Of a stretch of DNA of 63,664 nt, positions 3,194 through 52,712 are shown piece by piece (the first letter of the stretch is position 1; each line of letters opens with the position of its first letter). The translations under genes were made by a program, and so were the position numbers. Origin of the DNA: Nemertoderma westbladi (taxonomy: Eukaryota > Animalia > Xenacoelomorpha). The DNA lies in NCBI GenBank assembly GCA_032718475.1, contig JAUCBJ010003687.1, positions 1 through 63,664 of the forward strand, in the 5' to 3' direction. Under the pieces are notes generated by a model that was not told the origin of the DNA, searched no databases, and saw only the letters and a program-made list of their open reading frames with translations.

Positions 3194-3962
3194 TACGTCC
3201 ATTGACCAAATTGCAGCAAATGGAAATTTATAGAACTCTCCCCCTCCCCATATCAAAATATCACATTTTGTAAAAAAATCTTGCCCCCAGTCACCGCCCC
3301 CAGTTAACTCGATGGCATGGCCTTGTATATAGTACGCCTTGGTTGTAAGGCAGCATTTTGACTTATTTTTAAAACGGTTCCCATGGTAACCATTATAATG
3401 AAAATTTTAAAATGTGCATACAAAATAGCAGCATTAGGCCTAGCATATTACTGAATTAGGAGTAGACCTACTAACCTACTGTCTGTGGTGTGGTCTGACT
3501 GTCTACAGGTCTAAGTCATGGTGCTGTATAAATTTCTGAGTTTGGAATTAACAAGCCGAATACACATTCGGACTGTATTGTTCAGTAATCAGGTAATCTC
3601 AATCGAAGCTGAAGAATAATACTGTAATAGCAGAATAGGCTAGGCCTATCTGCACTGCCTATAGTTCTGTAGTGTAGTACTGGTACCGGTAATAATCTAA
3701 TTCAGTACACAGTAATTAGAGTTAAACAATACCGGTACTGTATTGTAGCCTACATCAGTACTGCAGTACATGTCAATGTCAGCATGTATCGGTCAATCTC
3801 AATAATTGTCTATTCAATAGTGCTGAAGTGAGTTGAATGTACAATGTAGGGCCTATACCTTACCATACCTGCATACTGCCATATACTACTGTACTATACA
3901 GCTATACAGATATCTGGATATCCAATATCCCCCACCCCCCCATACTGCCATACTAACTACCC

Positions 3963-6248
3963 ATGTCGCTATCCGATGTTGACGACGACGAAGAACAATT
4001 CCATGACGCCCCCGAAGATATTCCAGTGCGTCGTTATTCTACCGACGTACCTGGGCCGTCTACCGGCTATACCAACGAAGTCTACAAACTAATAACCCAA
4101 GTTCCGGACGTGATCGTGAGCTGCAGCGCTGTAACTACAGCTGGGGACGAGCAACCACTCCCACCGCCCCGTCGGAAAACTCGCCAGAGATCGAAACCCC
4201 CTGACCCCCAGAATGTTGGTACAGAAGCGAACCAACCTCTTAGTAGTGTCGGAACCAGCAGCGAAGAAGCTGACATTATTTACTCGTTGGATGAGTTAGA
4301 CGGCCTTGGGTCGGCCCAATTAATCCACTCCAAACCTCTACCTAATCAGCAAATCGAACGCGGCAAGGAAGAGGAGAACCCATCGATAGAACTCAGCCAG
4401 TCCCCAGGGGGGTCCCCTCGTCTCTTCCCCCCACCAAGGAAACCCCCAAGAACGTTCGTCTACAAGACACCGTCGGCGAATGCGGCAGTGGAGAATCTAA
4501 CGGTTGAGTTGGAGGCTGATCTCGCACGATTGGAACCCCCGACGCAGATGCGTAAGAAACGGATGGCGCCGCCGGTACCACCACCGCCTACAGTGGAGGC
4601 GCTGAATAAAACCTCTGAGGTAGAACGCTGGTTGAGTGACTCTGTTAACCCCAAGGATGAGATCATATTGGAGGGAATCAGTCTGAAGAACCTGGACACC
4701 GGCGAGATAACCTCGTTGAATCGAGCCAACGAGCTCCCGCAGTGCTTCAACCCCCTGGACCTACAGATTCTTCAGCGGGATGTGGATGTTCCGACCATCT
4801 ATAGTGGTTCGTCCATCGTATCCACCAACTCTGACTCCGACTCGGTATCCGCTGCTAGCGAGGATTATCCTGATGCTGGGAAGAAGGGCAAAAGTAAAGC
4901 GGGTAAGGTAGGGAGGTCTATATCCCGACATCTGTCCGTCGCCATGGCCAAAGTAAAGAAACGGGATAGTCGCGCGGCCCCAGTGGCTTCAGGACCGCCG
5001 GAGTTCTACGTGGACGATGTCGCTATAAGCGGTGCGTTTAAATTCAAAGCGGCCGCTAAAACTAAAGGGCCTTACGCTTTGCAGGGGGTTCAGTTGCTGC
5101 AGGACCTGAGCGGCGAGCACACTGGGGCCATATGGTGCATCCGTTTCTCAAAGTGCAAACGTTTATTGGCCACCGCCGGCCAGGATCACATCCTACATGT
5201 GTGGGTCCTCACTGGATATCAGTTCAAAGAACTCAAACGGAACGTCGGTGCTTCTCCTTCAATGGAACTCATTAGTAAGGAGACGCTGGAAGGGAATGAT
5301 GGGACGTTGGGTGAGGATTCTCAGGACGATCTGTTGTTTGCGCAGAAACCTTTGATCGCATTGAGTGGACACACCGCGGACATTCTGGACATATCGTGGT
5401 CGCGTAACTCCTTCCTACTCAGCAGTAGTATGGACAAGACGTGTCGTTTGTGGCATCCGTCCCGGAGTGAGTGTCTCGGCTGCTTCCAGCATCCCGACTT
5501 CGTTACGGCTATCGACTTCCACCCCAAGGACGACCGATACTTCCTCAGTGGTTCCCTCGACGGTAGGATTCGGGTCTGGTTCATACCGGATAAAAAGGTC
5601 ACGCTTTGGAACAATGTCTCGGACAATGTGACCAACAAGTTGATAACAGCCGCTTCCTTCTGTATGGATGGTAAGATGGTTGTGATTGGTAGTTACCATG
5701 GCCACTGCGTGTTCTACGATACCGACAGACTCCAGTACCACACGCAGATATCTCTGAGTAAATCGAAAAAGCGCACCGCGGCCTGTAAGATTAGTGGCAT
5801 CTGCCAGGTTCCTGGGGTTCCCCATCAGATCCTTGTTACTTCTAACGACAGCCGTCTCAGAATCTACGACATAGTCGAGAAATCATTGGTATGCAAGTTT
5901 AAAGGCCACGTGAATACATCCAGTCAGATAGCCGCTGCCTTCAACCACGACGGCTCCAGTATATGTTGTGGTTCCGAGGATTGCTTCATCTACCTGTGGA
6001 AGAATGGCACCTCGGATCTCGGCAAGTTTTCCACGAGAAGGGATCGCAATGCCCTCTGGGAGTCCATCAAGGTGCACGACACGGCAGTGACCTGTGTGGC
6101 CTTTGAGTTGTGCCCCGTGCCCAACCATAAGAGCGCACCCAACCCCAAGGGGATGGAGATATTGGTTAGCGGGGATTACACCGGTGGTATTAAAGTACTA
6201 GGGCCAGTCGGCGCTCCTAGTCAAACAGTGGTAACTGATACAAACTAA
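3963..6248 (+). CDS. WDR44: WD repeat-containing protein 44 (Rab11-binding protein, rabphilin-11), intronless CDS, 761 aa
   Basis: N-terminal FFAT motif (DDDEEQFHDAPE), proline-rich middle region, LKNLDTGE motif, QDLSGEHTGAIWCIRFS..LLATAGQD, GHTADILDISWS..FLLSSSMDKT, FQHPDFVTAIDFHPKDDRYFLSGSLDG and ILVTSNDSRLRIYD. All match WDR44. Confidence 0.93.
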   Translation: MSLSDVDDDEEQFHDAPEDIPVRRYSTDVPGPSTGYTNEVYKLITQVPDVIVSCSAVTTAGDEQPLPPPRRKTRQRSKPPDPQNVGTEANQPLSSVGTSSEEADIIYSLDELDGLGSAQLIHSKPLPNQQIERGKEEENPSIELSQSPGGSPRLFPPPRKPPRTFVYKTPSANAAVENLTVELEADLARLEPPTQMRKKRMAPPVPPPPTVEALNKTSEVERWLSDSVNPKDEIILEGISLKNLDTGEITSLNRANELPQCFNPLDLQILQRDVDVPTIYSGSSIVSTNSDSDSVSAASEDYPDAGKKGKSKAGKVGRSISRHLSVAMAKVKKRDSRAAPVASGPPEFYVDDVAISGAFKFKAAAKTKGPYALQGVQLLQDLSGEHTGAIWCIRFSKCKRLLATAGQDHILHVWVLTGYQFKELKRNVGASPSMELISKETLEGNDGTLGEDSQDDLLFAQKPLIALSGHTADILDISWSRNSFLLSSSMDKTCRLWHPSRSECLGCFQHPDFVTAIDFHPKDDRYFLSGSLDGRIRVWFIPDKKVTLWNNVSDNVTNKLITAASFCMDGKMVVIGSYHGHCVFYDTDRLQYHTQISLSKSKKRTAACKISGICQVPGVPHQILVTSNDSRLRIYDIVEKSLVCKFKGHVNTSSQIAAAFNHDGSSICCGSEDCFIYLWKNGTSDLGKFSTRRDRNALWESIKVHDTAVTCVAFELCPVPNHKSAPNPKGMEILVSGDYTGGIKVLGPVGAPSQTVVTDTN

Positions 6249-15730: not shown

Positions 15731-17644
15731 CATTTTATACATCCTTCTCTACTGTACCTATAGAGTTACATACTGTATTTCCATTTTATACACCCTTCTC
15801 TACTGTACCTACAGAGTTACATACTGTATCTCTACTGTACCTACAGAGTTACATACTGTATCTCTACTGTACCTACAGAGTTACATACTGTATCTCTACT
15901 GTACCTACAGAGTTACATACTGTATTTCCATTTTATACACCCTTCTCTTCTGTACCTACAGAGTTACATACTGTATTTATACACCCTTCTCTTCTGTACC
16001 TACAGAGTTACATACTGTATTTATACACCCTTCTCTTCTGTACCTACAGAGTTACATACTGTATTTATACACCCTTATCTTCTGTACCTACAGAGTTACA
16101 TACTGTATTTCCACTTCTGTACCTACAGAGTTACATACTGTATTTCCACTTCTGTACCTACAGAGTTACATACTGTATTTCCACTACTGTACCTACAGAG
16201 TTACATACTGTATTTCCACTACTGTACCTACAGAGTTACATACTGTATTTCCACTTCTGTACCTACAGAGTTACATACTGTATTTCCACTACTGTACCTA
16301 CAGAGTTACATACTGTATTTCCATTTTATACACCCTTCTCTACTGGACCTACAGAGTTACATACTGTATTTCCATTTTATACACCCTTCTCTACTGTACC
16401 TACAGAGTTACATACTGTATTTCCACTTCTGTACCTACAGAGTTACATACTGTATTTCCACTTCTGTACCTACAGAGTTACATACTGTATTTCCACTACT
16501 GTACCTACAGAGTTACATACTGTATTTCCACTACTGTACCTACAGAGTTACATACTGTATTTCCACTTCTGTACCTACAGAGTTACATACTGTATTTCCA
16601 CTACTGTACCTACAGAGTTACATACTGTATTTCCACTACTGTACCTACAGAGTTACATACTGTATTTCCACTACTGTACCTACAGAGTTACATACTGTAT
16701 TTCCACTACTGTACCTACAGAGTTACATACTGTATTTCCACTTCTGTACCTACAGAGTTACATACTGTATTTCCACTACTGTACCTACAGAGTTACATAC
16801 TGTATTTCCACTACTGTACCTACAGAGTTACATACTGTATTTCCACTACTGTACCTACAGAGTTACATACTGTATTTCCACTACTGTACCTACAGAGTTA
16901 CATACTGTATTTCCACTACTGTACCTACAGAGTTACATACTGTATTTCCACTACTGTACCTACAGAGTTACATACTGTATTTCCACTACTGTACCTACAG
17001 AGTTACATACTGTATTTCCACTACTATACCTACAGAGTTACATACTGTATTTCCACTACTGTACCTACAGAGTTACATACTGTATTTCCACTACTGTACC
17101 TACAGAGTTACATACTGTATTTCCACTTCTGTACCTACAGAGTTACATACTGTATTTCCACTACTGTACCTACAGAGTTACATACTGTATTTCCACTACT
17201 GTACCTACAGAGTTACATACTGTATTTCCACTACTGTACCTACAGAGTTACATACTGTATTTCCACTACTGTACCTACAGAGTTACATACTGTATTTCCA
17301 CTACTGTACCTACAGAGTTACATACTGTATTTCCACTACTGTACCTACAGAGTTACATACTGTATTTCCACTACTGTACCTACAGAGTTACATACTGTAT
17401 TTCCACTACTATACCTACAGAGTTACATACTGTATTTCCACTACTGTACCTACAGAGTTACATACTGTATTTCCACTACTGTACCTACTGAGTTACATAC
17501 TGTATTTCCACTTCTGTACCTACAGAGTTACATACTGTATTTCCACTACTGTACCTACAGAGTTACATACTGTATTTCCACTACTGTACCTACAGAGTTA
17601 CATTCTGTATTTCCACTACTGTACCTACAGAGTTACATACTGTA
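15731..17644. repeat. 35-bp satellite (CTACTGTACCTACAGAGTTACATACTGTATTTCCA), left part
   Basis: Tandem array, interrupted at 17644 by the LTR element. Confidence 0.97.
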
Positions 17645-18883
17645 TGTAAAAGCTTCTGTGGGATATAACTGGCCCTTTTGCTTTGCAATCCAGTTCCCCC
17701 CCAGGCGCTGGAATACTCTAAAAAGCTCTCTAACTCGAATGATACAAAGCGACCGGCTGATTGGCTGATTTGTTATACGAGGGGCTCTTTACTATGATTC
17801 TATCGGCCAACCAGAGCTATAGCAGCAGAGTATGCAACCAGGGCAACCGAGCGGAGTGACTCATTTTGTGTGTTGGCCAAGGGCTGCAAAAATCCTGATA
17901 GTTCGGCATTTAGATATTCGTGGAACCTGTGGAATCTGGTGTTCTGCCAATGAGAGCGATTCCTCTCTGTGTAAAAAGATACCTGCAACGGTGTTAGAGT
18001 CAGAGAGAGTGTTTTTGTTACTGTTGTGTTGTAGCTATCTAGGCCAGGAACACCGGCACTAGAGTCAACTCGTTTTCATACTTTAGAAGAAACATTAGTA
18101 GGCTTAAATTATAGAGCGTATAACTGTTATCGGTTCATAACAATCAGTGCATATCACGGTCCATATCAGTACATTGTCATATCATATCTTAACCTACCGT
18201 CTTAATGGTTTGCTGTTGTTTGGTTGAATATTATTTGGAGAACATTTATAAAGAACCCAAATTTCCCAATTTTCTTGATACACTACAGGTTAGAGAGACG
18301 GGTTATATATAGCGATTGCGACTTATATTATTGTGGTTTGTAGTGAATTTAATGCTAATTGATAAGCACTACATGAATCCGTTGCTGTTCTCTTTATATA
18401 TGATAAAATTCATTGACGGTCGGCAAATTAGTGAGCAGTATTGTGTGTTACCGGTAGTGTGCATGATTGTGACTGATAACTAAGCATTTCCTAAAGAATG
18501 CGCCTCATACGTGAATCATAAGCCTTACCGACTTACCGTTGTGATTAGTATAAGTCATAGCTCTGTTTAAATAGATAGAGCGCCACGTCCTAAAGGAACT
18601 GCTAATATTTCCCGAAAGTGAATAATATTAGTCAGAAATTAATTATTAACGATCAATCGAATAATACAGTACAGTAAGCTTACACTGCAATAATAATCTA
18701 AGCCCTCAGAATCCAGTCTCCCGGGAATATCCAGCGGGTGAATGGATGCGCACTAGGCTGGCTTCTGCTAATGTTGTGTTTATTGGTATTAAATATTTGT
18801 CATCTTCTAAAGTCTATTTATAAACCAAAAGACATATCAATTTTGGCAGGTTAAACTGCTAAAGGTCTTCAAAAGCGCGTACA
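17645..18883 (+). repeat. 5' LTR (1239 bp)
   Basis: TGTAAAAGC...AAAAGCGCGTACA, near-identical to 28902-30160. Confidence 0.95.
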
Positions 18884-18944
18884 ATAACAGTTATTGACTT
18901 TATTGCAGTAAGCAATAAAGTTGAAAGTACCGGTCAACCGGTAA

Positions 18945-19075
18945 ACCTGAACCGGTACTTCTGTAGGTCAGTAGGCCCAACTGCCAGAACCAGTACTGCT
19001 GTAGGTCCGTAGGTCCAACTGCCAGAACCGGTACTTCTGTAGGTCCGTAGGCCCAACTGTCCTAACCGGTACTTC
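18945..19075 (+). repeat. 36-bp tandem repeats in the element's 5' leader
   Basis: About 3.5 copies of AACCGGTACTTCTGTAGGTCCGTAGGCCCAACTGCCAG-like units. Confidence 0.75.
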
Positions 19076-19269
19076 CAGTATAAGTACATTAGTATTATTC
19101 GATTTGATTATTGCATACCGGTAGGCTGTTTAAGAGATTAGGGACTGTACACCCCTTGTTTCTTTTGGAGCTTACTTATTTCTGTCAGTTTTATTTACAT
19201 GTAAGTTAATATTGAGCTGAAGACGTGTAAGTCTGCTCAGATTGTTCAGATAATTATAGGCCGGACTGT

Positions 19270-19825
19270 TGTCGGATTGTTGTTGGGTTTGGAGAGATTA
19301 CGGCGTGTGTAGAGTTTGTCCGATAGAGTGCCAGTTAGTAAGTTGGGGCAGCCATAGCTGTAAGGTCAATCCCCTCTTAAAGAATAAGTCGTACTACCGT
19401 GTTAGAACGCATACTAACTAACAATTTTGGAATCTGCACATACTGTAGTTTATTTAGGCTTGACAGTATTCTGCCAGCGTTTTGGCCTGTGTTTGTTTGT
19501 GTGGTCTGTTCAGGTACCGTAATAGTTATTACTCAGATATTTTGTAGGCTGGATTGTTGTCTAGCTATTATTAGGTCTGAAGAGATTGCTGCGTGTGTAG
19601 AGTTTGTCTGATAAAGTGCCAGTTAGTAAGTTGGGGCAGCCATAGCTGTAAGGTCAATCCCCTCTTAAAGAATAAGTCGTACTACCGTGTTAGAACGCAT
19701 ACTAACTAACCGTTTCGGAATCTACACGTACAGTAGTTTATTTAGGCTTGGTGGTAGTCTGCCAGCGTTTGGTCTGTATTTTGTTTGAGTATTCTGTACG
19801 GGTAGCGTAATATTTATTATTCAGA
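19270..19825 (+). repeat. ~288-bp tandem duplication in the element's 5' leader
   Basis: GCGTGTGTAGAGTTTGTC...GTTAGAACGCATACTAACTAAC occurs at 19303 and again at 19591. Confidence 0.85.
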
Positions 19826-21117
19826 GTTTATGCGATTATTCGCAACATTCATGTCCCCAAGTTTATTCCTACAGTAATTGTGTTTGTTACACATACCGTT
19901 ATAGTTAAATTAACCCCGGTACTACACGGGCTGCTTGGCGTAGGACAAGACTGGTGACTTTGTGCTTCGGTCACTCCAGCAGATGCCGTGGTTCTTTTAA
20001 CTGTTCAAGTATATTTAACTACTGATTATTTGTTGTACCAGTACTTGTACCTAATTTAGGGTTTAGTGTACAGTGCTTTCCGAAAGTAATTAGTGTGTAG
20101 GCAGTATATTTGTGTTGTAAAGTGGTTAATAGGCACGCTGGATCTGGTAGTCCGCGGTAATTAACTTCTAGGTAGGAACACTCCGTGATACATAACGTAG
20201 TACCTATAGCGATACGGCTATAGGTCGTCAGGCGGTGGTATTTTCCTATCTGGACAGTGCAATATATTTACTACTACTTATTATTTTCAAATACCGTAGT
20301 ACCCTGTCCGTTGTAATAACCAGAAATCTAACCCTTTGTTAGGCTGGTTTGTAGACTTCCTGTAAAATTACCCTAAAAATTCGTGCGTAATATTTTGTTG
20401 TGTTTAATTAGAGAATTAATCTCACCCGTATCGTAAGTAATTTGTAGTATTAAGTAACTTAGGTAAATTAGAATTATCTGTTTTAGTGTCAAATAAATAG
20501 CACTCCACTGAGAGCGTACAGCTTCTGTGTAGTGACTCCCCCAGAAATAATAACATTTATTTCAAATATTGACAAAAACCCATTTTAAACGGGTATATAA
20601 ATATTATAAATCAACTCAAACGATTTATAAATAGTAGGCCTGCCATACAACAACTAGGTCTCAATATCAGTTGGACTACTGCTTAAATAGCGGTAATAAA
20701 GTAAGTTAAAGTAACCAAGTAACCCTAAAATATTCAGAAATTCAATTATTCTAAAATAATTGACATACCGGTATTTACCATAGGCTTATTATATTTATTT
20801 CTATAAATTTATGCTGAAATCATACCGGTATTCTGTAATTAATTCTAATTCATAATTATACTTATATACACTATAAGTGTAAGCTGTATACCGGTATTCA
20901 CGATAGGCCTATTATATATTTATATATATTTGTGCTAAATTTATATACCGGTACTCTGTGACAAAACTAGTTTACAATACTTATATATATTATAAGTGCA
21001 TACCGGTATTCTAATATACTGCAATAAATTACTGGTACTAGGCCAACGGTCATACTGAATTACTAGACTTGCTTTAACTGAAACTATAGCAGTAAGCATT
21101 CAACTGTATAGCTAAAC

Positions 21118-24100
21118 ATGTCTGACACTCAGCAAAACCTGTCAGACAGTCTAATCGATACAACCATCTGTGACACAGATAGGAGTGTGGAGCGATTAAG
21201 AAAGGAGTTCAGCTCACCTCCTACTGAAAGAAAAGTCATCCCTCCAGTAGTGGTATCAGACCCTAAGCTAATCCAACACCGTAGGTCTATCATCGGCACT
21301 CGGGCCCAAGTCAAACGGAACCAGGAAGCAGCTGTCCCACAGCAGCAACAGCCTAGTCAAGAAACTTGTTCCCAGCGATCCGATAGCTCCAGTAGTTCGG
21401 ATACTGTCGAGCTGACCCCCGAACGCGGATTGCAGATGACAGCTAAAGCCTACTCGGACCCCCTTCTCACCCTTCCTGCCGCAGTGCTAACTACTCTATT
21501 GATTGCGGTGGAGGAACATCAAGCCGATTGGGCGAGAAATAAGCGAGCGACCCAAGATAATTATGCGGGATACGCCAGGGAAGAATTGATGTCTATTGTC
21601 GAGTCACAATGGAACTTTCCCGGACCCGGACTCCCGTTAGATCTGTCCGAGGCTACTTGGGAAGATATACACAGGATGGGAGTGGCTAAAGATACGATGG
21701 ATCCAGCTGTTTGGAAGAGGTCGGCAGCAGGATATGTGCAGGGATTCTTCGGCTCCTTAGAGCGATTAGAAGAACAACTGTTTCGACAACCCCAAGGACC
21801 TCAAGAGCAGGAAGAACTGCTATATCAAGTACGTGAAAGAACCCTACGCATTCGACTAATCCTATCAGCTTTTGAGGAAACTTCCAAAAGAAGACAGGAC
21901 ACGTCGCTGCAGGTTGCTGTCAAAACTTGGTTCCAGCGGGTAGGTCTCCAAGTACAAGAAACAGACCAGTGGAAATCCCAGTTGTCTGAGAGACGAACCT
22001 ATGACGAATCAACCGATGTCACCCTTCCTCAAGTGGAAGGCGAAGAGACCGCAGAGAGACCACGAACGAGAGACGCCATAGACATTTATCAGTCCGACTA
22101 TCAGTGATTCCTAGGAGACGAAGAGTTGAGGAGACGGCTGTCTGGACTTTCCCCTAATAGTGAAGGAACCCAGCGTGTGTTAGACTCAATCGATGCTGAA
22201 ATGTTAGCTGCTAACCAAGCTGAATTTGATGAAAAACTCCGCCTCGCTAGAATCCAAGAAGAACAAGTAAAGAAAAAGCGGATAGAGGACAAAAAGGCAG
22301 TAGCAGCGGCGAAAGCGGCAGTGGCAGTGGAAGCGGCAAAGGCAGCAGCGGCAGTGGAAGAGGCAAAGGCAGTAGCATCGGCGAAAGCTGCAGCGACAGT
22401 AGAAGCAGCCAAAGCAGCAGCAGCAATAGCATTGGCAGACGCAGAACAGAGAGCGTCTGAAGAGACCACACAACTGGAGTTGGAAAATCTTCAAGAGACG
22501 TAAGACTGCATAAATAAACAGTTAACTGCTAGTCAAATGCAGATGAGGAGTCGATCTACTCCCAAGCGCCAGGGATACACATCATCGGAGGAAAGCGAAA
22601 CCACCGATCCTGAAGGCGGAGGAAATAGATCTCGTCTAAGCAGGCGTAGAAAAACATCTTACCGTCATAAATTGCCTGATTTGCCCCCAGCTGTTAGAAG
22701 ACAACTAGCTAGCACAGACTTAGGTAGTACAGAACCCACAGAACAAATTATTCAGGTCAAAAGACTCCCTACAATAGTTGATGAGCCTGAAATAATTAGG
22801 CCTGTCGTTCCCAAAGTCACACCTGTGCTAGAGACCCCTGTACTTCCAGAGCTTAACTCTAAGTTCCCTTTACACAGTACTACACTGCCTGTACCCGGTA
22901 GAACAGTCCATGAGAATATTCCTGTCCTGGAAGCTGAGAGAGAAATCAAAGATTTGTCTCCCGTCGTCCCACGTCAGCCCGCTACAATGTTGGCGACTCC
23001 CGCTTCGGCGGTCGAGTGGGTAGAGGAGGGACGGCGGGGGATGAATCTCCTGCTCGGACAGATGCAGGAGACTGTCTACCAACTTAAGGGAACAGTAAGG
23101 GAAGGTAGGGCCGAATTGCAAGAAGTGCAGCAAAGTATCGCGCTAGAACGCGACAAATTAGTCAATATCCAAAAGGGGATACCAATACCCCCTGTAAAAT
23201 TGTGTCAACCTGTTAGGTCTGAAGTATTACATGCGCAAGGTGTGGAGCCTACACGCATCTATACTGCTAGTGAAGTAGAAACTCCTATAGCAAACCCTAT
23301 TAAGGGTGATTATAGACCTGTTATTAATGATATCCCTTATAGACCTGACAATGATCCGAGAAATTTATATACCGATAATTCGATATTAAATAACACGATG
23401 GCCCAAGAAAGCTTTACGCGTCAGATGGCTAGAACAGAAGCCCGCCAAGCGGTCAAAGTGGGAGAGATCGTCAAATTCAATGGAGATGAGATGAAATGGT
23501 TACCTTTCAACGAATATTACAAAGATAGCATACAAAACTCTGTACTATCTAACGGAGAGAAACTTAGGTTCCTCATCAAGTGCTTGGAAGGACCTCCCAG
23601 GTTAATGGCGTTAAAGTTTATTGGACATCCAGAAGGATTAAGACAAGTATGGGATACATTAAACATCAGGTATGGTAACAAGGATAACATAGCTAAGTAT
23701 TTGTATGCAAAATTAGTAGCCCCCCGACACTTCCTTAGTAGCGGGATTATAGAGTTTTCCGATGAGATTCAAGAGATCTGTAGACAATTGGACTGGTTAG
23801 GTAAGTCTCATGAATATCAGAGTTCCATGGTTATTGGAGCCGTAGTCTCTACTTTACCAAAGGGTGGAGTATGTACACGCTGGGACAAGAAAGTGTTGTA
23901 CATGAATGAACAACAACGACGAAGCCCTACCATGGCTGATCTCATGTCCTTCTTAGATGGTGAGGTAAAACTACAACTCATCAAGCAGGCCAGAGAGAAA
24001 ACATCGGAAAATAAGGTAAGTGAGAAACCCGTTTCTAGGAGAAGGATAATACCAGTGTGTTATACTGACGATGGCGAAAGCCAAGCTTCTCAAGAAGAGG

Positions 24101-25740
24101 ACAGCGGGAAAGACACAGCAAAATCTTACTATGACAACAAGACCTATAAAGACGTAAGTAAATACAAGTCTCGAATCAGTGACAGGAGAGAACAGGTAAC
24201 GACAACTCCTCCTACGTCTCCTAAGAGAATTCACGGAAGAAAGCCCGAAGAAAGAACGAGAGTGCATAACGTTACCCAAGGTAAGGTGAGTAACATCAAA
24301 CCAAAATGTGCGCTGTGCGACGGGCCCCACCGTTTGAGTGCGTGTGCTGAATTTCTAAAGAAATCCCCTGTAGACAGACATACAGTCCTGTGGAGTAAGC
24401 GGTTATGCTATAATTGCCTCAGATCAGGACACCAACGGCGAACCTGTTACTCCGACGTAAAGTGTGCAAAGTGTGGCGCGAAACATCACATCTTGTTACA
24501 CAGTGAGTTCGAACGAGACAACCCGAGTCAGGTAAGTGAGCCCGAACTACATGTCCAATTCAGTGATGTAAATGACACTGATCAAGAGTCTGAGATGGAA
24601 GGATTCTATACTGACGAATTCTCCGACGCCAACGAATCCTGTTACCTAATAAATACCTCAGTGTATCGAGCACTTACTTATGAAAAGGACACCGACAATG
24701 AGTTCCCCCCAACTACTTTTGCCAGACAACCATCTTGGAAAGCTCCAACTTCCAACGTAGGAATCAGAGAATTTCCTGTAGTGCAGGTAAGAGTTCATGG
24801 TCCTAACAAAAGTTACATAGTGAACGCCCTCCTTGACTCCAGCAGCACAGGAACATTCATCGATCAAGAACTAGCCGAAGATATTTTTGCTGGACAACCC
24901 AAATTCCGGACTAAATTGAATATGTCAGGAATTATGCAGGTTTGGAAATCTACCCTAACGGCAGACTACTATGTAGGTGTGTTGTCCACCCCCCAGGATA
25001 AATTAGGAGCACAAGGTATAAGGTCGGTAAAAATGGTGGCTATAAAGAACTTCGCTGCTACCCAAGCAGACCTTTATAATTGGGACGAGGATGAGAGCAT
25101 CCAACATCTTAAGATACCTCGATTCCAGACAGATTATCCTGGAGTGCAAATACTCATCGGCCAAAACGCGCATGAGGCGCTCGAGACATTGGAGAAACGG
25201 CCTGCTCAACCGCAGCCACTGCAAACCTATGCGGTAAGAACTAGAGTAGGTTGGTACTTCACTGGCCCTTCCCGTAGAACTCTCAAAGAGAGATTACCTC
25301 AACAACAGGTATACCAAGTAAAGGAATGGGAAGTGGAGAGCAGTGATGTGGACGATCCAACTGAGGGAACACCATACTCCTCAGATAATGACGATATTAA
25401 CTCCAATGTAGATCAATGGAGACATTGCCTTGGGACGATTAATCCAGCCGACATCGCTTCCAGAGGAGCAACTCCTCAAGAACTGATAGATACTCCAGGC
25501 TGGTTAGGTGGATCCGACTTCTTAAGTAAAGAAGAAGAAGAATGGCCTCCTCATCTTACCACGGCGGAGGTTAGACAGGCCAAGGGAGCGGAGAAAGTAA
25601 CACAACAACTCAATCGCCCAGCTAGTCGTTTATGTTTACTGGAAAGAGACCGAAAACTGTCCGGAAACTATGGAAGGCAAGATACTCTTCCTACGACTAC
25701 TTCCCTAATCCGACAAATATCTAGGGACTCCATAACGTGA
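21118..25740 (+). pseudogene. BEL/Pao Gag-protease polyprotein fused to the RNase H C-terminal motif; one frame of ~1540 codons with two in-frame stops (TGA 22105, TAA 22501)
   Basis: ORFs at 21118, 22126 and 22537 share one frame. Motifs: DUF1759-like KFNGDEMKWLPF..LSNGEKLRFL, three knuckles (CALCDGPHRLSAC, CYNCLRSGHQRRTC, CAKCGAKHHILLH), protease NALLDSSSTGTFI..ILIGQ..RTRVGW, then QWRHCLGTINPADIASRG..EWP. Confidence 0.88.
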
Positions 25741-27371
25741 TAGCATGTGGAGTGGGCGTGTGACTATATCATTTTATATTTGTTTTTATTTTATATTTAT
25801 GTATGTATTATTATGTAATTTTATTATAATCGTTTTCTTTAATTTTATTTAGTAGCATGTTATTTTAGTGATTATTTAGTAGATTAGTGCAATATATTAG
25901 TGTTTATTACGTACGTAATTACTTATAATATATATTTAGTGCGACGGCGAGAAATAATTATTTTTTCTCTTTCCTTACTGTCCGTATCATATTATAAATA
26001 CGTGACTACAGTAAGATGAAATGTCCGTACTTCTTAAAGTACAATAAAGCCACTACTATATTCAGGTATTATTGGTAGGCAGAGTATTAGGAATGCAAAG
26101 TTCAGATCCTCGTGTCTCGGCTAAACCAAGCTCTGGGTAGACCTTGGAAACGACTTGCCTCTTCACACTGACATTGCTTCGTGCGATATTGCTCTTCTAC
26201 CTTATATTAAATAATACATATAGTAGCGTGATGTCCATATAACAGTAGCGTAAAACGCAAATAAATCTGTTAAACCTTTTGACCATCTGTAATTCTAGTC
26301 GATTAAGATATCGCGGCACCCACCGATATACTTGAAAGACAAATTCTAGAATCAGTGGTTAACGTCCCCAGACAAGTTCTGGAATAAATCGGTGCCCATC
26401 TTAAATATTAATTTAATATTTAGTAAAATCTGTAAAATTCAGATCCGTTAACAATTCTAGTCGATTAAGATATCGTAGCACTTACCGATACTCTTAAAAG
26501 ACAAATTTCATAGAATTAAGGATCCTATGTCTCCAGACCTGCTCTGGAATCAAATTGTGTCGATTTTAACATCAAATAATAAAATTCATGGGAATAAATT
26601 TAAATTCATATTTTAAATGAATTTCATAAATTGTCGTTTTATGCAATTTATAACATTCCCAAAATTCCATTAATTAATAGATCATGGGAGCGGAGATTCA
26701 TCCTATTGAGTGTATTAGAGTGCGAGAATCTCCAACATATAGTCAATAGCCGATAAAATTAATAAAATCATGTATAAAGAGGATATTGACAATTAAAGAA
26801 TTATTATTAAATAGCATCCCAGATCTGTATGCATGAGAATTACTCTAATTCTACCGCTAGCTTTCCATAATGTCACCATAGCAACACCCACGCTAGAATT
26901 AGAAGCAAGTTAAGAGAACAATAGCAAGCTTGTCACATTGCATAGCATAGAGAATACATAGCACACTGTTAGTATCCAAAGATACACAGTAATAACGTGA
27001 CATTCTGGAAGGCACTGACTAACGGACAAATGGCATGTATGTGTACAATTGGTGACAGTTGTGTGGAATTTGTGCGTTTATAGGTGAATGTTACTGCTAA
27101 AGTATGTTTACAGTAGGTAGTCGCAATTGTAAAAATAGCCCAACTCTCCTATAGAAAGAACCTAAAGTGGATTCAAGCCTTTGGGACGGACAGTGGAGTG
27201 ACTTGTGCCGGTTATCGTTGTCGTGCTGTTGCTACATGTTGGCGTAAACACCGCGACGACGGTACATCAGCGCTGAGAATCCCACTGTCCGGGGGCAAAG
27301 AGAGGTAGGCAGCGACGTCCGTTCGCCTAAACATAAACTCATTTCGATATTAACAAACTCAGATAGCAGAT

Positions 27372-28820
27372 ATGACGGAGTTGATAGAAGATGATCTTGG
27401 TATCAGGGAGCGATATACTCTACCTTTACAAGCATTTGTGGATAGCTTGATACGCGGTGAAACCGATCCAACCATTACGGAGGACGATGGTCGTTATATC
27501 GAACCGCCGATGTCCCAATAGCAACTTACGCGTGAATTGGACTATCGAAAATTCACCGCTCGCTATACGCATCGTAATAGTATGTATATGGACTTCCTAA
27601 CTACCGGCCATCCTATCGATTTACATGATACGGACGATGTAGACACCGAAAGGGAAATGGTTCTATTTAAATATCATACCCAGCGGAGTCGTAACGATAA
27701 ACCGAGAATAGATCACGAAAATTCTATTCGTAACAGACTGGGAAGACGAACCAATATGCCTAGAATCTGAGGAGATTCAGCCTATCGCGCCCGGAACAGC
27801 GACAACGATTACATCCTAGAATGGTATCAAGGTCCACAGTGTCTCACTGCGTACAATTATCGCCATGCCAACTATGTTTCTCGGCAACGTTGTCGGTTAT
27901 GCGCATCGAGAGACCATGATACGCCCATGGACACAAACGTCCGCTGTTCCTATTTCCAAGAACAACCGACTATGGAAATTTATTGCGCATATTGCCGACT
28001 CAATAACTTGCACATTTTTGCGGTTTGCCCTCAATTTATGACTCAATGTCACCATTGTCAACTAAAGGGACACGCCAGTTTCGATTGCCCTTTTAATCAC
28101 GATTTGGAAAGCGTAGATGAAATGATCACACTACGTTACATCCGAGCTTGGGAAGCGAACGCTGATTTACACTGTGATTTGCGCCATCGCTATTATCCCG
28201 GACGCGCTTACGAAGGAGTTTATGCGTTCCATCCTTATCTATTCGCTTCGGTCGAACAGAAATCACGCATATCGAGTTACGAGCTACTGAAGCGCGTCGG
28301 AGAATGTATTTCAACCAAATTCGTACGCAAATTTCTCAGGAGTGTTAATCCTAGCGACCTTCATTCCTATAACTTAATCAATTATATCCGTCAGGATCCG
28401 GACTATGGAGACTTGTTTGTTAACTCACACCCCGAGTTACAGGAAGTGTATCGACGACCTTACGAATACCGAGCACGCGAACGCGAGTTGGAAAGAACCA
28501 TTAAACCCCGGAGGTTTCTGACTGCCTGTGGTCCACCCACGGCTCTCGTTCAGACCACTCGTAAAGGACCCGTAAGAGCGGCTGTCTTAAAACGAGCTCT
28601 CAAAGCCGTTAGACCCCTCTCCTCCGACGTTGATGTCAATCAACCCGGTACTTCGACTGGCGGATACACCGACCATAATCCTACACCCTCTGATGCAATC
28701 ATATTGCACCCTTCACCCAGGAGTTATAGCCCTCCTTGTAAAGTGGCTCGCCCCAAAGAGAAAAAGACTCTGGCCAGCTTTAAAAAACTGCGAAAATGCC
28801 GTCCGCGTAAGAAAGACTAA
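27372..28820 (+). pseudogene. Extra 3' ORF of the LTR element: ~482-codon protein with three CCHC-type zinc fingers and a basic C-terminus; two in-frame stops (TAG 27519, TGA 27768)
   Basis: ATG 27372, ORF 27537 and ORF 27927 are all in one frame. Fingers are CRLCASRDHDTPMDTNVRC, CAYCRLNNLHIFAVC and CHHCQLKGHASFDC; the protein ends KKLRKCRPRKKD. Confidence 0.75.
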
Positions 28821-28901
28821 CTGTTTAGTAGAGTATTTACGTATATTAGAAACTGTGATTTTTGTATATTAATAGACTCAAATCCCATTTTCTGGGAGCG
28901 G

Positions 28902-30160
28902 TGTAAAAGCTTCTGTGGGATATAACTGGCCCTTTTGCTTTGCTTTGCTTTGCTTTGCTTTGCAATCCAGTTCCCCCCCAGGCGCTGGAATACTCTAAAA
29001 AGCTCTCTAACTCGAATGATACAAAGCGACCGGCTGATTGGCTGATTTGTTATACGAGGGGCTCTTTACTATGATTCTATCGGCCAACCAGAGCTATAGC
29101 AGCAGAGTATGCAACCAGGGCAACCGAGCGGAGTGACTCATTTTGTGTGTTGGCCAAGGGCTGCAAAAATCCTGATAGTTCGGCATTTAGATATTCGTGG
29201 AACCTGTGGAATCTGGTGTTCTGCCAATGAGAGCGATTCCTCTCTGTGTAAAAAGATACCTGCAACGGTGTTAGAGTCAGAGAGAGTGTTTTTGTTACTG
29301 TTGTGTTGTAGCTATCTAGGCCAGGAACACCGGCACTAGAGTCAACTCGTTTTCATACTTTAGAAGAAACATTAGTAGGCTTAAATTATAGAGCGTATAA
29401 CTGTTATCGGTTCATAACAATCAGTGCATATCACGGTCCATATCAGTACATTGTCATATCATATCTTAACCTACCGTCTTAATGGTTTGCTGTTGTTTGG
29501 TTGAATATTATTTGGAGAACATTTATAAAGAACCCAAATTTCCCAATTTTCTTGATACACTACAGGTTAGAGAGACGGGTTATATATAGCGATTGCGACT
29601 TATATTATTGTGGTTTGTAGTGAATTTAATGCTATTTGATAAGCATTACATGAATCCGTTGCTGTTCTCTTTATATATGATAAAATTCATTGACGGTCGG
29701 CAAATTAGTGAGCAGTATTGTGTGTTACCGGTAGTGTGCATGATTGTGACTGATAACTAAGCATTTCCTAAAGAATGCGCCTCATACGTGAATCATAAGC
29801 CTTACCGACTTACCGTTGTGATTAGTATAAGTCATAGCTCTGTTTAAATAGATAGAGCGCCACGTCCTAAAGGAACTGCTAATATTTCCCGAAAGTGAAT
29901 AATATTAGTCAGAAATTAATTATTAACGATCAATCGAATAATACAGTATAGTAAGCTTACACTGCAATAATAATCTAAGCCCTCAGAATCCAGTCTCCCG
30001 GGAATATCCAGCGGGTGAATGGACGCGCACTAGGCTGGCTTCTGCTAATGTTGTGTTTATTGGTATTAAATATTTGTCATCTTCTAAAGTCTATTTATAA
30101 ACCAAAAGACATATAAATTTTGGCAGGTTAAACTGCTAAAGGTCTTCAAAAGCGCGTACA
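28902..30160 (+). repeat. 3' LTR (1259 bp)
   Basis: Copy of the 5' LTR with a 20-bp (TTTGC)n expansion and about five substitutions seen by eye. Confidence 0.95.
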
Positions 30161-30779
30161 CTGTATTTCCACTACTGTACCTACAGAGTTACATACTGTA
30201 TTTCCACTACTGTACCTACAGAGTTACATACTGTATTTCCACTACTGTACCTACAGAGTTACATAATGTATTTCCACTACTGTACCTACAGAGTTACATA
30301 CTGTATTTCCATTTTATACATCCTTCTCTACTGTACCTACAGAGTTACATACTGTATTTATACACCCTTCTCTACTGTACCTACAGAGTTACGTACTGTA
30401 TTTATACACCCTTCTCTACTGTACCTACAGAGTTACATACTGTATTTCCACTACTGTACCTACAGAGTTACATACTGTATTTATACACCCTTCTCTACTG
30501 TACCTACAGAGTTACATACTGTATTTCCACTACTGTACCTACAGAGTTACATACTGTATTTATACACCCTTCTCTACTGTACCTACAGAGTTACATACTG
30601 TATTTATACACCCTTCTCTACTGTACCTACAGAGTTACATACTGTATTTCCACTACTGTACCTACAGAGTTACATACTGTATTTATACACCCTTCTCTAC
30701 TGTACCTACAGAGTTACATACTGTATTTATACACCCTTCTCTACTGTACCTACAGAGTTACATACTGTATTTCCATTTT
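30161..30779. repeat. 35-bp satellite, right part (with longer TATACACCCTTCT variants)
   Basis: Same unit as 15731-17644, resuming in register after the TSD. Confidence 0.95.
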
Positions 30780-30850: not shown

Positions 30851-33800
30851 ATTGGTGATTTAGCATTATGAATGGCTTCAAACTAAAAATTGGTGATTTA
30901 GCATTATGAATGGCTTCAAACTAAAAATTGGTGATTTAGCATTATGAATGATTTAGCATTATGAGTGGCTTCAAACTAAAAATTGGTGATTTAGCATTAT
31001 GAATGGCTTCAAACGAAAAATTGGTGATTTAGCATTATGAATGGCTTCAAACTAAAAATTGGTGATTTAGCATTATGAATGATTTAGCATTATGAATGGC
31101 TTCAAACTAAAAATTGGTGATTTAGCATTATGAATGGCTTCAAACTAAAAATTTGTGATTTAGCATTATGAATGATTTAGCATTATGAATGGCTTCAAAC
31201 TAAAAATTGGTGATTTAGCATTATGAATGGCTTCAAACTAAAAATTGGTGATTTAGCATTATGAATGGCTTCAAACTAAAAATTGGTGATTTAGCATTAT
31301 GAATGATTTAGCATTATGAATGGCTTCAAACTAAAAATTGGTGATTTAGCATTATGAATGGCTTCAAACTAAAAATTGGTGATTTAGCATTATGAATGGC
31401 TTCAAACGAAAAATTGGTGATTTAGCATTATGAATGGCTTCAAACTAAAAATTGGTGATTTAGCATTATGAATGATTTAGCATTATGAATGGCTTCAAAC
31501 TAAAAATTGGTGATTTAGCATTATGAATGGCTTCAAACGAAAAATTGGTGATTTAGCATTATGAATGGCTTCAAACTAAAAATTGGTGATTTAGCATTAT
31601 GAATGATTTAGCATTATGAATGGCTTCAAACTAAAAATTGGTGATTTAGCATTAGGAATGGCTTCAAACTAAAAATTTGTGATTTAGCATTATGAATGAT
31701 TTAGCATTATGAATGGCTTCAAACTAAAAATTGGTGATTTAGCATTATGAATGGCTTCAAACTAAAAATTGGTGATTTAGCATTATGAATGGCTTCAAAC
31801 TAAAAATTGGTGATTTAGCATTATGAATGATTTAGCATTATGAATGGCTTCAAACTAAAAATTGGTGATTTAGCATTATGAATGGCTTCAAACTAAAAAT
31901 TGGTGATTTAGCATTATGAATGGCTTCAAACTAAAAATTGGTGATTTAGCATTATGAATGGCTTCAAACTAAAAATTGGTGATTTAGCATTATGAATGGC
32001 TTCAAACGAAAAATTGGTGATTTAGCATTATGAATGGCTTCAAACTAAAAATTGGTGATTTAGCATTATGAATGGCTTCAAACTAAAAATTGGTGATTTA
32101 GCATTATGAATGGCTTCAAACTAAAAATTGGTGATTTAGCATCATGAATGGCTTCAAACGAAAAATTGGTGATTTAGCATTATGAATGGCTTCAAACTAA
32201 AAATTGGTGATTTAGCATTATGAATGGCTTCAAACTAAAAATTGGTGATTTAGCATTATGAATGGCTTCAAACTAAAAATTAGTGATTTAGCATTATGAA
32301 TGGCTTCAAACAAAAATTGGTGATTTAGCATTATGAATGGCTTCAAACTAAAAATTGGTGATTTAGCATTATGAATGGCTTCAAACGAAAAATTGGTGAT
32401 TTAGCATTATGAATGGCTTCAAACTAAAAATTGGTGATTTAGCATTATGAATGATTTAGCAGTATGAATGGCTTCAAACTAAAAATTGGTGATTTAGCAT
32501 TATGAATGGCTTCAAACTAAAAATTGGTGATTTAGCATTATGAATGGCTTCAAACTAAAAATTGGTGATTTAGCATTATGAATGATTTAGCATTATGAAT
32601 GGCTTCAAACTAAAAATTGGTGATTTAGCATTATGAATGGCTTCAAACTAAAAATTGGTGATTTAGCATTATGAATGGCTTCAAACTAAAAATTGGTGAT
32701 TTAGCATTATGAATGGCTTCAAACGAAAAATTGGTGATTTAGCATTATGAATGATTTAGCATTATGAATGGCTTCAAACTAAAAATTGGTGATTTAGCAT
32801 TATGAATGGCTTCAAACTAAAAATTGGTGATTTAGCATTATGAATGGCTTCAAACTAAAAATTGGTGATTTAGCATTATGAATGGCTTCAAACTAAAAAT
32901 TGGTGATTTAGCATTATGAATGGCTTCAAACTAAAAATTGGTGATTTAGCATTATGAATGGCTTCAAACTAAAAATTGGTGATTTAGCATTATGAATGGC
33001 TTCAAACTAAATATTGGTGATTTAGCATTATGAATGGCTTCAAACTAAAAATTGGTGATTTAGCATTATGAATGGCTTCAAACTAAAAATTGGTGATTTA
33101 GCATTATGAATGGCTTCAAACTAAAAATTGGTGATTTAGCATTATGAATGATTTAGCATTATGAATGGCTTCAAACTAAAAATTGGTGATTTAGCATTAT
33201 GAATGGCTTCAAACAAAAAATTGGTGATTTAGCATTATGAATGGCTTCAAACTAAAAATTGGTGATTTAGCATTATGAATGGCTTCAAACGAAAAATTGG
33301 TGATTTAGCATTATGAATGGCTTCAAACTAAAAATTGGTGATTTAGCATTATGAATGGCTTCAAACTAAAAATTTGTGATTTAGCATTATGAATGGCTTC
33401 AAACTAAAAATTGGTGATTTAGCATTATGAATGGCTTCAAACTAAAAATTGGTGATTTAGCATTATGAATGGCTTCAAACTAAAAATTGGTGATTTAGCA
33501 TTATGAATGGCTTCAAACGAAAAATTGGTGATTTAGCATTATGAATGATTTAGCATTATGAATGGCTTCAAACTAAAAATTGGTGATTTAGCATTATGAA
33601 TGGCTTCAAACTAAAAATTGGTGATTTAGCATTATGAATGGCTTCAAACTAAAAATTGGTGATTTAGCATTATGAATGGCTTCAAACTAAAAATTGGTGA
33701 TTTAGCATTATGAATGGCTTCAAACTAAAAATTGGTGATTTGCATTATGAATGGCTTCAAACGAAAAATTGGCGATTTAGCATTATGAATGATTTAGCAT

Positions 33801-36800
33801 TATGAATGGCTTCAAACTAAAAATTGGTGATTTAGCATTATGAATGGCTTCAAACTAAAAATTGGTGATTTAGCATTATGAATGATTTAGCATTATGAAT
33901 GGCTTCAAACTAAAAATTGGTGATTTAGCATTATGAATGGCTTCAAACGAAAAATTGGTGATTTAGCATTATGAATGGCTTCAAACTAAAAATTGGTGAT
34001 TTAGCATTATGAATGGCTTCAAACTAAAAATTGGTGATTTAGCATTATGAATGATTTAGCATTATGAATGGCTTCAAACTAAAAATTGGTGATTTAGCAT
34101 TATGAATGGCTTCAAACTAAAAATTGGTGATTTAGCATTATGAATGGCTTCAAACTAAAAATTGGTGATTTAGCATTATGAATGGCTTCAAACTAAAAAT
34201 TGGTGATTTAGCATTATGAATGGCTTCAAACGAAAAATTGGTGATTTAGCATTATGAATGATTTAGCATTATGAATGGCTTCAAACTAAAAATTGGTGAT
34301 TTAGCATTATGAATGGCTTCAAACTAAAAATTGGTGATTTAGCATTATGAATGATTTAGCATTATGAATGGCTTCAAACTAAAAATTGGTGATTTAGCAT
34401 TATGAATGGCTTCAAACTAAAAATTGGTGATTTAGCATTATGGATGGCTTCAAACGAAAAATTGGTGATTTAGCATTATGAATGGCTTCAAACGAAAAAT
34501 TGGTGATTTAGCATTATGAATGGCTTCAAACTAAAAATTGGTGATTTAGCATTATGAATGGCTTCAAACTAAAAATTGGTGATTTAGCATTATGAATGAT
34601 TTAGCATTATGAATGGCTTCAAACTAAAAATTGGTGATTTAGCATTATGAATGGCTTCAAACTAAAAATTGGTGATTTAGCATTATGAATGGCTTCAAAC
34701 TAAAAATAGGTGATTTAGCATTATGAATGGCTTCAAACTAAAAATTGGTGATTTAGCATTATGAATGGCTTCAAACTAAAAATTGGTGATTTAGCATTAT
34801 GAATGATTTAGCATTATGAATGGCTTCAAACTAAAAATTGGTGATTTAGCATTATGAATGGCTTCAAACTAAAACTTGGTGATTTAGCATTATGAATGGC
34901 TTCAAACGAAAAATTGGTGATTTAACATTATGAATGATTTAGCATTATGAATGGCTTCAAACTAAAAATTGGTGATTTAGCATTATGAATGGCTTCAAAC
35001 TAAAAATTGGTGATTTAGCATTATGAATGGCTTCAAACTAAAAATTGGTGATTTAGCATTATGAATGATTTAGCATTATGAATGGCTTCAAACTAAAAAT
35101 TGGTGATTTAGCATTATGAATGGCTTCAAACTAAAAATTGGTGATTTAGCATTATGAATGGCTTCAAACTAAAAATTGGTGATTTAGCATTATGAATGGC
35201 TTCAAACTAAAAATTGGTGATTTAGCATTATGAATGGCTTCAAACTAAAAATTGGTGATTTAGCATTATGAATGGCTTCAAACTAAAAATTGGTGATTTA
35301 GCATTATGAATGATTTAGCATTATGAATGGCTTCAAACTAAAAATTGGTGATTTAGCATTATGAATGGCTTCAAACTAAAAATTGGTGATTTAGCATTAT
35401 GAATGGCTTCAAACTAAAAATTGGTGATTTAGCATTATGAATGGCTTCAAACGAAAAATTGGTGATTTAGCATTATGAATGGCTTCAAACTAAAAATTGG
35501 TGATTTAGCATTATGAATGATTTAGCATTATGAATGGCTTCAAACTAAAAATTGGTGATTTAGCATTATGAATGGCTTCAAACTAAAAATTTGTGATTTA
35601 GCATTATGAATGGCTTCAAACTAAAAATTGGTGATTTAGCATTATGAATGGCTTCAAACTAAAAATTGGTGATTTAGCATTATGAATGGCTTCAAACTAA
35701 AAATTGGTGATTTAGCATTATGAATGGCTTCAAACGAAAAATTGGTGATTTAGCATTATGAATGATTTAGCATTATGAATGGCTTCAAACTAAAAATTGG
35801 TGATTTAGCATTATGAATGGCTTCAAACTAAAAATTGGTGATTTAGCATTATGAATGGCTTCAAACTAAAAATTGGTGATTTAGCATTATGAATGGCTTC
35901 AAACTAAAAATTGGTGATTTAGCATTATGAATGGCTTCAAACTAAAAATTGGTGATTTAGCATTATGAATGGCTTCAAACGAAAAATTGGCGATTTAGCA
36001 TTATGAATGATTTAGCATTATGAATGGCTTCAAACTAAAAATTGGTGATTTAGCATTATGAATGGCTTCAAACTAAAAATTGGTGATTTAGCATTATGAA
36101 TGATTTAGCATTATGAATGGCTTCAAACTAAAAATTGGTGATTTAGCATTATGAATGGCTTCAAACGAAAAATTGGTGATTTAGCATTATGAATGGCTTC
36201 AAACTAAAAATTGGTGATTTAGCATTATGAATGGCTTCAAACTAAAAATTGGTGATTTAGCATTATGAATGATTTAGCATTATGAATGGCTTCAAACTAA
36301 AAATTGGTGATTTAGCATTATGAATGGCTTCAAACTAAAAATTGGTGATTTAGCATTATGAATGGCTTCAAACTAAAAATTGGTGATTTAGCATTATGAA
36401 TGGCTTCAAACTAAAAATTGGTGATTTAGCATTATGAATGGCTTCAAACGAAAAATTGGTGATTTAGCATTATGAATGATTTAGCATTATGAATGGCTTC
36501 AAACTAAAAATTGGTGATTTAGCATTATGAATGGCTTCAAACTAAAAATTGGTGATTTAGCATTATGAATGATTTAGCATTATGAATGGCTTCAAACTAA
36601 AAATTGGTGATTTAGCATTATGAATGGCTTCAAACTAAAAATTGGTGATTTAGCATTATGAATGGCTTCAAACGAAAAATTGGTGATTTAGCATTATGAA
36701 TGGCTTCAAACGAAAAATTGGTGATTTAGCATTATGAATGGCTTCAAACTAAAAATTGGTGATTTAGCATTATGAATGGCTTCAAACTAAAAATTGGTGA

Positions 36801-37541
36801 TTTAGCATTATGAATGATTTAGCATTATGAATGGCTTCAAACTAAAAATTGGTGATTTAGCATTATGAATGGCTTCAAACTAAAAATTGGTGATTTAGCA
36901 TTATGAATGGCTTCAAACTAAAAATAGGTGATTTAGCATTATGAATGGCTTCAAACTAAAAATTGGTGATTTAGCATTATGAATGGCTTCAAACTAAAAA
37001 TTGGTGATTTAGCATTATGAATGATTTAGCATTATGAATGGCTTCAAACTAAAAATTGGTGATTTAGCATTATGAATGGCTTCAAACTAAAACTTGGTGA
37101 TTTAGCATTATGAATGGCTTCAAACGAAAAATTGGTGATTTAGCATTATGAATGATTTAGCATTATGAATGGCTTCAAACTAAAAATTGGTGATTTAGCA
37201 TTATGAATGGCTTCAAACTAAAAATTGGTGATTTAGCATTATGAATGATTTAGCATTATGAATGGCTTCAAACTAAAAATTGGTGATTTAGCATTATGAA
37301 TGGCTTCAAACTAAAAATTGGTGATTTAGCATTATGAATGGCTTCAAACGAAAAATTGGTGATTTAGCATTATGAATGGCTTCAAACTAAAAATTGGTGA
37401 TTTAGCATTATGAATGGCTTCAAACTAAAAATTGGTGATTTAGCATTATGAATGGCTTCAAACTAAAAATTGGTGATTTAGCATTATGAATGGCTTCAAA
37501 CTAAAAATTGGTGATTTAGCATTATGAATGGCTTCAAACTA
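30851..37541. repeat. 38-bp satellite (TGGTGATTTAGCATTATGAATGGCTTCAAACTAAAAAT) with interspersed +17-bp variants
   Basis: Homogeneous tandem array of ~6.7 kb. Confidence 0.98.
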
Positions 37542-37865
37542 TAAATTTCGGAAATGTTTATTTTTAAAATGATAAAGTTTCAGGTGTATAAAACCAGTAT
37601 CGCGGTACAGGTGGTGTATTGCGTGTATAGAATGTAGTATCGTATGAGTGTATATCGTACCCAACTGTATATTCAGCTTAATATAAGTGACACAATTTTT
37701 ATGAGAGTTTTCTACTTACAAAGTTTAATCCGTCCATTTTTTTGGATACCTTATGAAGTACTATTGCTTTACACAGCAACATGGGGTGTTCTACCTAGGC
37801 CTCAATACTATAATAGTATTTTTATAAGACGTCTTCAACTATTCACTGTCTACGTCTACCAACAC

Positions 37866-52298: not shown

Positions 52299-52712
52299 TG
52301 CCCCAGAGGATCCTTGTGTAACGCACAAATAATTATAATTGTTCAGTAGAGCGATAACGTGAAACAGTTATTCATTTATACAATCATAATGCGTTATAAT
52401 CATATTTGTAATAAATGTAATAATTTTAAACCAAAGTTTAGGTATAAGGTAAAGCAGAAACAAACGCCATCATTTCAAGCTATCGGTTTGTTTTATTTTT
52501 TTTTTTAATTTATTCAAATTCAATACGCTTTAATTAGTTTCCAATTCTGCTCAGGAAAATCAAAAGAGCAGTTACTTTGTAGACCTCGGCTGGCTGCTAC
52601 ATGCTACTTTCATGTGCACCTAGTATTATACATAATAATAATAATAATACTAAAACTAAATGTAATTCGTAATTTGAAACAATTCTCTCAACCGAAATCT
52701 TAATACGCTACA

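Follow-up and report, generated by a model that had tools for sequence, protein, structure and literature searches.

The window analysed here, a stretch of 63,664 nt, contains a BEL/Pao element at positions 17645-30160 whose two LTRs are 99.6% identical (Table 1). They differ by five substitutions in 1239 nt and a single 20-nt microsatellite indel. Because substitutions are so few and the target-site duplication is intact, the insertion must be young, and in such a young copy the site directly behind the 5′ LTR has served as a primer site recently. The element is surrounded by a 35-nt satellite (15731-17645 and 30160-30775), the unit end of which resembles the start of the LTR, and more satellites occupy 30851-38000 and 52644-58000. 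The window also carries an intronless WDR44-like frame (3957-6248) with 47-48% identity to arthropod and vertebrate proteins alike. The word ACCGGT occurs 13 times in the element, clustered in leader repeats (18929-19117 and 20767-21007), and may mark factor-binding sites. A search of 17600-30200 against Rfam gave zero matches at E values up to 1, and a tRNA gene search of the window found none.

Table 1. Features of the BEL/Pao element and its borders (positions in the window)
Feature	Position	Strand	Remarks
Left target-site duplication, CTGTA	17640..17644	+	Within 35-nt satellite
5′ LTR, 1239 nt, TGTA...TACA	17645..18883	+	
Conserved LTR-family island	18074..18131	+	Putative core promoter and primer
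Candidate self-primer, ATAACTGTTAT, in LTR	18120..18130	+	Second copy at 29397-29407 in 3′ LTR
LTR segment, 10 nt, complementary to 18900-18909	18684..18693	+	Possible second long-range duplex
Putative primer-binding position, ATAACAGTTAT, abutting 5′ LTR, no TGG	18884..18894	+	
Hairpin, 13 bp with G-U pairs, 10-bp core at 18897-18921	18894..18924	+	Directly after the putative primer-binding site
Leader repeats: 38-nt unit x 3.3 (18949-19075), 288-nt unit x 1.9 (19286-19825)	18949..19825	+	
Gag-protease frame, in-frame stops at 22105 and 22501	21118..25740	+	Lacks RT, integrase and most of RNase H
DUF1759 region of gag frame	about 23476-23862	+	PF03564, E 2e-12
Three zinc knuckles in gag frame	about 24307-24500	+	
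C-terminal RNase H stub, BEL/Pao NPAD-x-ASRG motif	25399..25551	+	
Extra 349-aa frame, first third Cys/His-rich, zinc-knuckle-like	27771..28820	+	No Pfam hit
Short purine-rich tract, GGGAGCGG, adjoining 3′ LTR	28894..28901	+	
3′ LTR, 1259 nt, TGTA...TACA	28902..30160	+	11-mer copy at 29397-29407
Right target-site duplication, CTGTA	30161..30165	+	

The gag frame encodes, in this order, DUF1759, three zinc knuckles, a protease motif and an RNase H stub. The stub corresponds to the final 50 residues of an RNase H of the Pao type and shares 37-48% identity over 38-50 aa with seven of eight homologues. Between 25266 and 25399 the protease region joins these last 50 residues in frame; the junction is a clean internal deletion of RT, and integrase is missing as well. 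We are thus dealing with a non-autonomous BEL/Pao element that has gag, protease and an RNase H stub, and since RT and integrase are missing, the copy must be mobilised in trans. In front of the 3′ LTR lies the region of the extra frame (27522-28820), which is broken by one stop at 27768-27770. Atlas features (score of at most 0.86) suggest that the extra frame is zinc-knuckle-like, which we take as a lead only.

The assignment to BEL/Pao, made in the initial annotation, is borne out by the proteins (DUF1759 gag, knuckles, Pao-type RNase H motif). ICTV ascribes to Belpaoviridae an 18-nt site that pairs with a host tRNA (PMC8742986). With the family as described by ICTV the element shares the DUF1759 gag with three zinc knuckles, the protease, the Pao-type RNase H motif, TG..CA LTRs, a 5-bp duplication and the purine tract; it differs in lacking the 18-nt site for the 3′ end of a host tRNA, RT and integrase, and in having the extra frame. 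Among longer proteins, eight gag-protease homologues were found, six of which carry PF05380 and seven PF03564; none was a close gag relative, the best of the eight having 23% identity over 96% of the query. In gag-protease trees (FastTree) the element, a copy without RT and integrase, forms a long branch among BEL/Pao rows, in a loose group of 19 rows (support, 91) that includes three loci of the survey described below (L092, L104 and L112). This placement is weak and does not demonstrate a common origin with the group. That the nearest tree group might be entirely free of tRNA priming was rejected, because L150-L152 in the same loose group carry TGG sites.

The sequence ATAACAGTTAT, which follows the 5′ LTR with a spacer of 0, is exactly reverse-complementary to ATAACTGTTAT in the LTR over 11 nt, with no extension on either side. 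The initial annotation had pointed to this spacer-free complement and to the lack of a TGG-starting primer-binding site (PBS), and both statements hold, the first TGG lying 282 nt downstream of the 5′ LTR. Dinucleotide shuffling of the LTR reproduced the match at offset 0 in 25 of 20,000 trials (67 of 20,000 at offsets 0-3). In the window, ATAACNGTTAT occurs exactly three times, namely at the post-LTR site and in both LTR copies. Reverse complements in the LTR exist for 5 of 10,008 internal 11-mers, which represent three separate sites including the one behind the LTR. The 11-mer is a quasi-palindrome, as had been cautioned. The 10-bp hairpin that was also described (18897-18921) is real and reaches 13 bp by way of G-U pairs; in the folding model it outcompetes the pairing of 18900-18909 with 18684-18693.

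The stretch is present in seven of the eight public runs listed, none of them recorded as RNA, and contigs from four runs were placed on positions 17645-19240. The lack of cover upstream of about 18180 in run X4 was given no weight. The contigs show a large and diverse LTR family: in the two deep runs, 137 (X1) and 146 (X3) of 1596 positions in the LTR region vary at a share of at least 3%. Within 18066-18136, by contrast, no substitution at a share of at least 1% was listed in three contig sets (301, 107 and 9 contigs; the fourth run, X6, yielded none for 18066-18175), and the only variants listed in the conserved island are 1-nt insertions after 18107 and 18116. The invariance of 58 nt has a binomial P of about 0.005, compared to about 0.37 for the 11-mer alone. 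The 11-mer closes the island, whose edge lies one base past it. Summed depth, which is not copy number, is low at 17753-18022, high at 18077-18130 and about 10-fold lower at 18131-18184, the fall near 18175 being partly an edge effect. Of the pieces listed, 11 of 24 end at 18131, with loose ends beyond that differ among themselves, and 4 of the 15 joints listed leave the reference at the same position. The region 18239-18292 is also among the best covered of the family. On the side of the putative PBS, the 40 variant rows listed of 246 include none in 18884-18894. In one diverged contig the site is retained as far as 18895, but the hairpin is not. Covariation was not seen, because neither the LTR 11-mer nor the post-LTR 11-mer has a variant among those listed.

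Self-priming has been reported for the Tf1/sushi group (available portions of PMC7175516, PMC4600332, PMC5341516 and PMC6317226). As far as the accessible text goes, Tf1, Tf2, Tj1 and other members of this group of Ty3/gypsy chromoviruses share with our element an 11-nt site abutting the 5′ LTR, its exact complement in the LTR and the lack of a tRNA site (PMC7175516, PMC4600332, PMC5341516). Our element is not a member of the group, which has a Ty3/gypsy polyprotein with a chromodomain integrase, whereas its proteins are of the BEL/Pao type; it also differs in a predicted loop of about 750 nt between primer and site, a quasi-palindromic primer and a start site that is a prediction. The claim of Tf1-like self-priming in the initial annotation stands as far as the geometry is concerned (11 nt, offset 0, no TGG), but the three-duplex structure is half present at best: the "pretzel" outlined for Tf1 in the available part of bioRxiv 2022.12.06.519325 is not clearly present. 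Its flanking duplex at the LTR end did not score above shuffles (206/300 and 241/300), and the downstream one gave 11/300 for 20 nt, a marginal value that is the best of four tests, and 190/300 for 12 nt.

The cross duplex of the two 11-mers has a predicted energy of −10.1 kcal/mol, compared to −5.0 and −5.5 kcal/mol for the self-dimers. Its predicted probability depends on where the RNA starts: it is about 0 for four starts between 17645 and 18074, peaks at 0.13-0.19 for starts at 18087-18100, and rises to 0.69 at 18110 and 0.94-0.98 at 18115-18120. Folding thus favours an RNA start near 18110-18120. The last three bases of the primer have a predicted pairing probability of 0.15-0.4 in the native fold, where another helix mostly takes them. 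A special fold of the loop was considered and rejected: with shuffled loops the duplex forms equally well or better, its probability lying above the native mean in 71 of 74 cases, and the loop is therefore without special design. A canonical TATA box is absent 25-35 nt upstream of 18120, and a TATAA overlaps the 11-mer itself. The combination of a TATA at 18119 and an initiator at 18146 is weakened as a candidate, since family members do not conserve the Inr-like TCAGT at 18144-18148. Words resembling splice sites are found in the LTR at 18289-18295, 18674-18679 and 18849-18855 (CAG|GTTA twice, GTAAGC once), and judged by such words the LTR may hold introns.

We regard the feature as real and likely functional. 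An LTR element that was recently mobile needs a primer ending at the LTR edge, and the element's own 11-mer is the only full-length partner found; furthermore, this 11-mer closes the conserved island and pairs best as the 5′ end of an RNA. For these reasons Tf1-like self-priming is our favoured and probable reading, and priming by the element's own RNA in one form or another is likely. In the model, the predicted start of the transcript is 18120 or a position slightly upstream, and its first 11 bases would fold back onto the complementary 18884-18894 that abuts the 5′ LTR. Cleavage of the RNase H type behind base 11, which we infer from Tf1, would free a 3′ end at the LTR edge, from which minus-strand DNA would copy the rest of the LTR before jumping to the 3′ repeat. 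An intact relative must supply RT, RNase H and integrase in trans, as they are missing from this copy.

To put the match into context, 124 other BEL/Pao loci were fetched; loci shorter than 5500 nt were passed over, and a candidate LTR pair was obtained for 61. TG..CA ends at both LTRs were present in 46 of the 61, of which 39 have a TGG-type site and 7 do not (4 of the 7 with doubtful boundaries). We take the TGG sites of most surveyed elements to be of the tRNA-Tyr type. None of the 61 other LTR pairs had a contiguous self-match of more than 8 nt, and hence the 11-nt match is no general by-product of LTR composition. Two elements without TGG (L112 and L120) have an 11-nt post-LTR match at offset 0 to the exon-exon joint of a GTAAGT..AG intron in the LTR; spliced matches in the 39 TGG-type elements reach at most 7 nt. 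A third (L104) has a spliced match of 10 nt with a weaker donor. L112 and L120 lie on contigs derived from hosts. Two further BEL/Pao-associated LTR pairs (L092 and L171) lack a TGG site and also show no self-match, be it contiguous or spliced. The chances are about even that part of BEL/Pao does without tRNA priming and is primed by its own LTR RNA instead, with a contiguous, near-palindromic 11-mer at the RNA start in our element and a splice-built one in L112 and L120. Loss of the intron may have turned the spliced form into the contiguous one, or the two may have arisen separately.

The spliced matches bear on a rather unlikely variant, in which the own-RNA primer is not the transcript's first 11 bases and is instead an internal segment cut at its 3′ side, the copy in the 3′ LTR, or the product of splicing that joins the GT at 18126 to one of two acceptors, at 18289 or 18849. 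L112 and L120 match solely across the exon-exon joint, with no more than 7 nt in any of the 39 controls; in our element splicing of 18126 to 18289 would pair 10 of 11 bases at offset 1, position +6 of the GT at 18126 is where the conserved island stops, and an acceptor-like tract ending at 18086 would imply transcription from farther upstream. Yet the match without splicing is the longer one and lies at offset 0, the donor at 18126 (ACT|GTTATC) is far from consensus and unlike the GTAAG at 18674, and RNAs with upstream sequence form no duplex in the folding model. Neither AATAAA nor ATTAAA precedes 18131, which also counts against this variant, and priming from a poly(A) site at 18131 was set aside for the same reason. 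It is improbable that a host RNA is the primer, most plausibly a half molecule of tRNA-Asn with its anticodon loop on the start of the site, the LTR match being incidental or a relic. Half-tRNA priming is known in copia lineages (accessible parts of PMC6317226 and PMC5445492), and Belpaoviridae are tRNA-primed according to ICTV (PMC8742986). The best of 60 stand-in tRNAs, a small non-host set whose positive control failed and which therefore speaks neither for nor against this reading, was the anticodon loop of a bacterial tRNA-Asn(GUU) with 7 nt at offset 1. This compares to 11 nt for the own RNA, leaves the LTR-proximal base unpaired and does not explain why the LTR copy closes the conserved island.

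The quasi-palindromic nature of the 11-mer, the repeat of any palindrome resembling its reverse complement, would fit a protein-binding or RNA dimer-contact site used twice, in promoter and leader, or a palindrome-plus-hairpin signal like that of GalEa, in either case with another primer; we give this little chance of being right. AACNGTT-like words occur 8 times in the element, beside the 13 of ACCGGT, and the TATAA mentioned above overlaps the LTR copy. The fungal copia element GalEa (Conserved Hairpin Site), as described in the accessible part of PMC5445492, has no PBS and carries a palindromic word of 9-10 nt and a hairpin directly behind its 5′ LTR. Its palindrome is, however, an arm of the hairpin and, in that text, has no LTR complement, whereas in our element the hairpin comes after the palindrome and the LTR holds a perfect complement. 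Furthermore, the free central base is complementary between the two copies (T and A), a primer has to end at offset 0 and the element has no other primer site, and the diverged contig described above keeps the site without the hairpin. A chance match of AT-rich words is very improbable: two other internal sites do have reverse complements of 11-13 nt in the LTR, and many elements are screened in a scan of this sort, but the P at offset 0 is about 0.001 and the LTR copy sits in the last 12 bases of the conserved island.

Self-priming has also been predicted for the plant lineages Tcn1 (gypsy) and TAR (copia), with the rule, in the accessible part of the source, that at least 10 nt starting 0-5 nt after the 5′ LTR be complementary to the LTR (PMC6317226). 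Our element passes this rule and differs from Tcn1 and TAR in superfamily and host kingdom. According to PMC8742986, the replication of BEL/Pao elements is poorly understood and primed by tRNA. The main text of a BEL/Pao survey (PMC3118150) has no mention of primer, PBS or tRNA, the Sinbad paper (PMC554778) has none of PBS or tRNA, and the available portions of PMC3601003, PMC3286476, PMC5443660 and PMC8220671 do not address BEL/Pao priming. A search of the literature outside most subscription journals, Repbase reports and supplements found no paper on self-priming in BEL/Pao. A likeness of the 11-mer to the Tf1 primer was not confirmed in print. The nematode element Cer7 is said to have an element-encoded primer, for which our literature search found no source.

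If true, a self-primed BEL/Pao lineage extends to a third superfamily a mechanism proven only in fission-yeast Tf1, and explains how PBS-based annotation would miss such elements. It would also be relevant to the question of whether priming by tRNA is ancestral or late (PMC3601003). Should BEL/Pao indeed use both the contiguous and the spliced form, self-priming would occur in all three LTR-retrotransposon superfamilies and would support a high-copy, non-autonomous family primed in trans.

Finally, no BEL/Pao relatives were found among viral contigs, and the exact 28-nt pattern of the LTR end had zero matches in metagenome contigs. Fifty of the surveyed loci (L075-L124) encode BEL/Pao polyproteins in metagenome-assembled genomes labelled as bacterial or archaeal, which suggests that animal host DNA was left in those assemblies.
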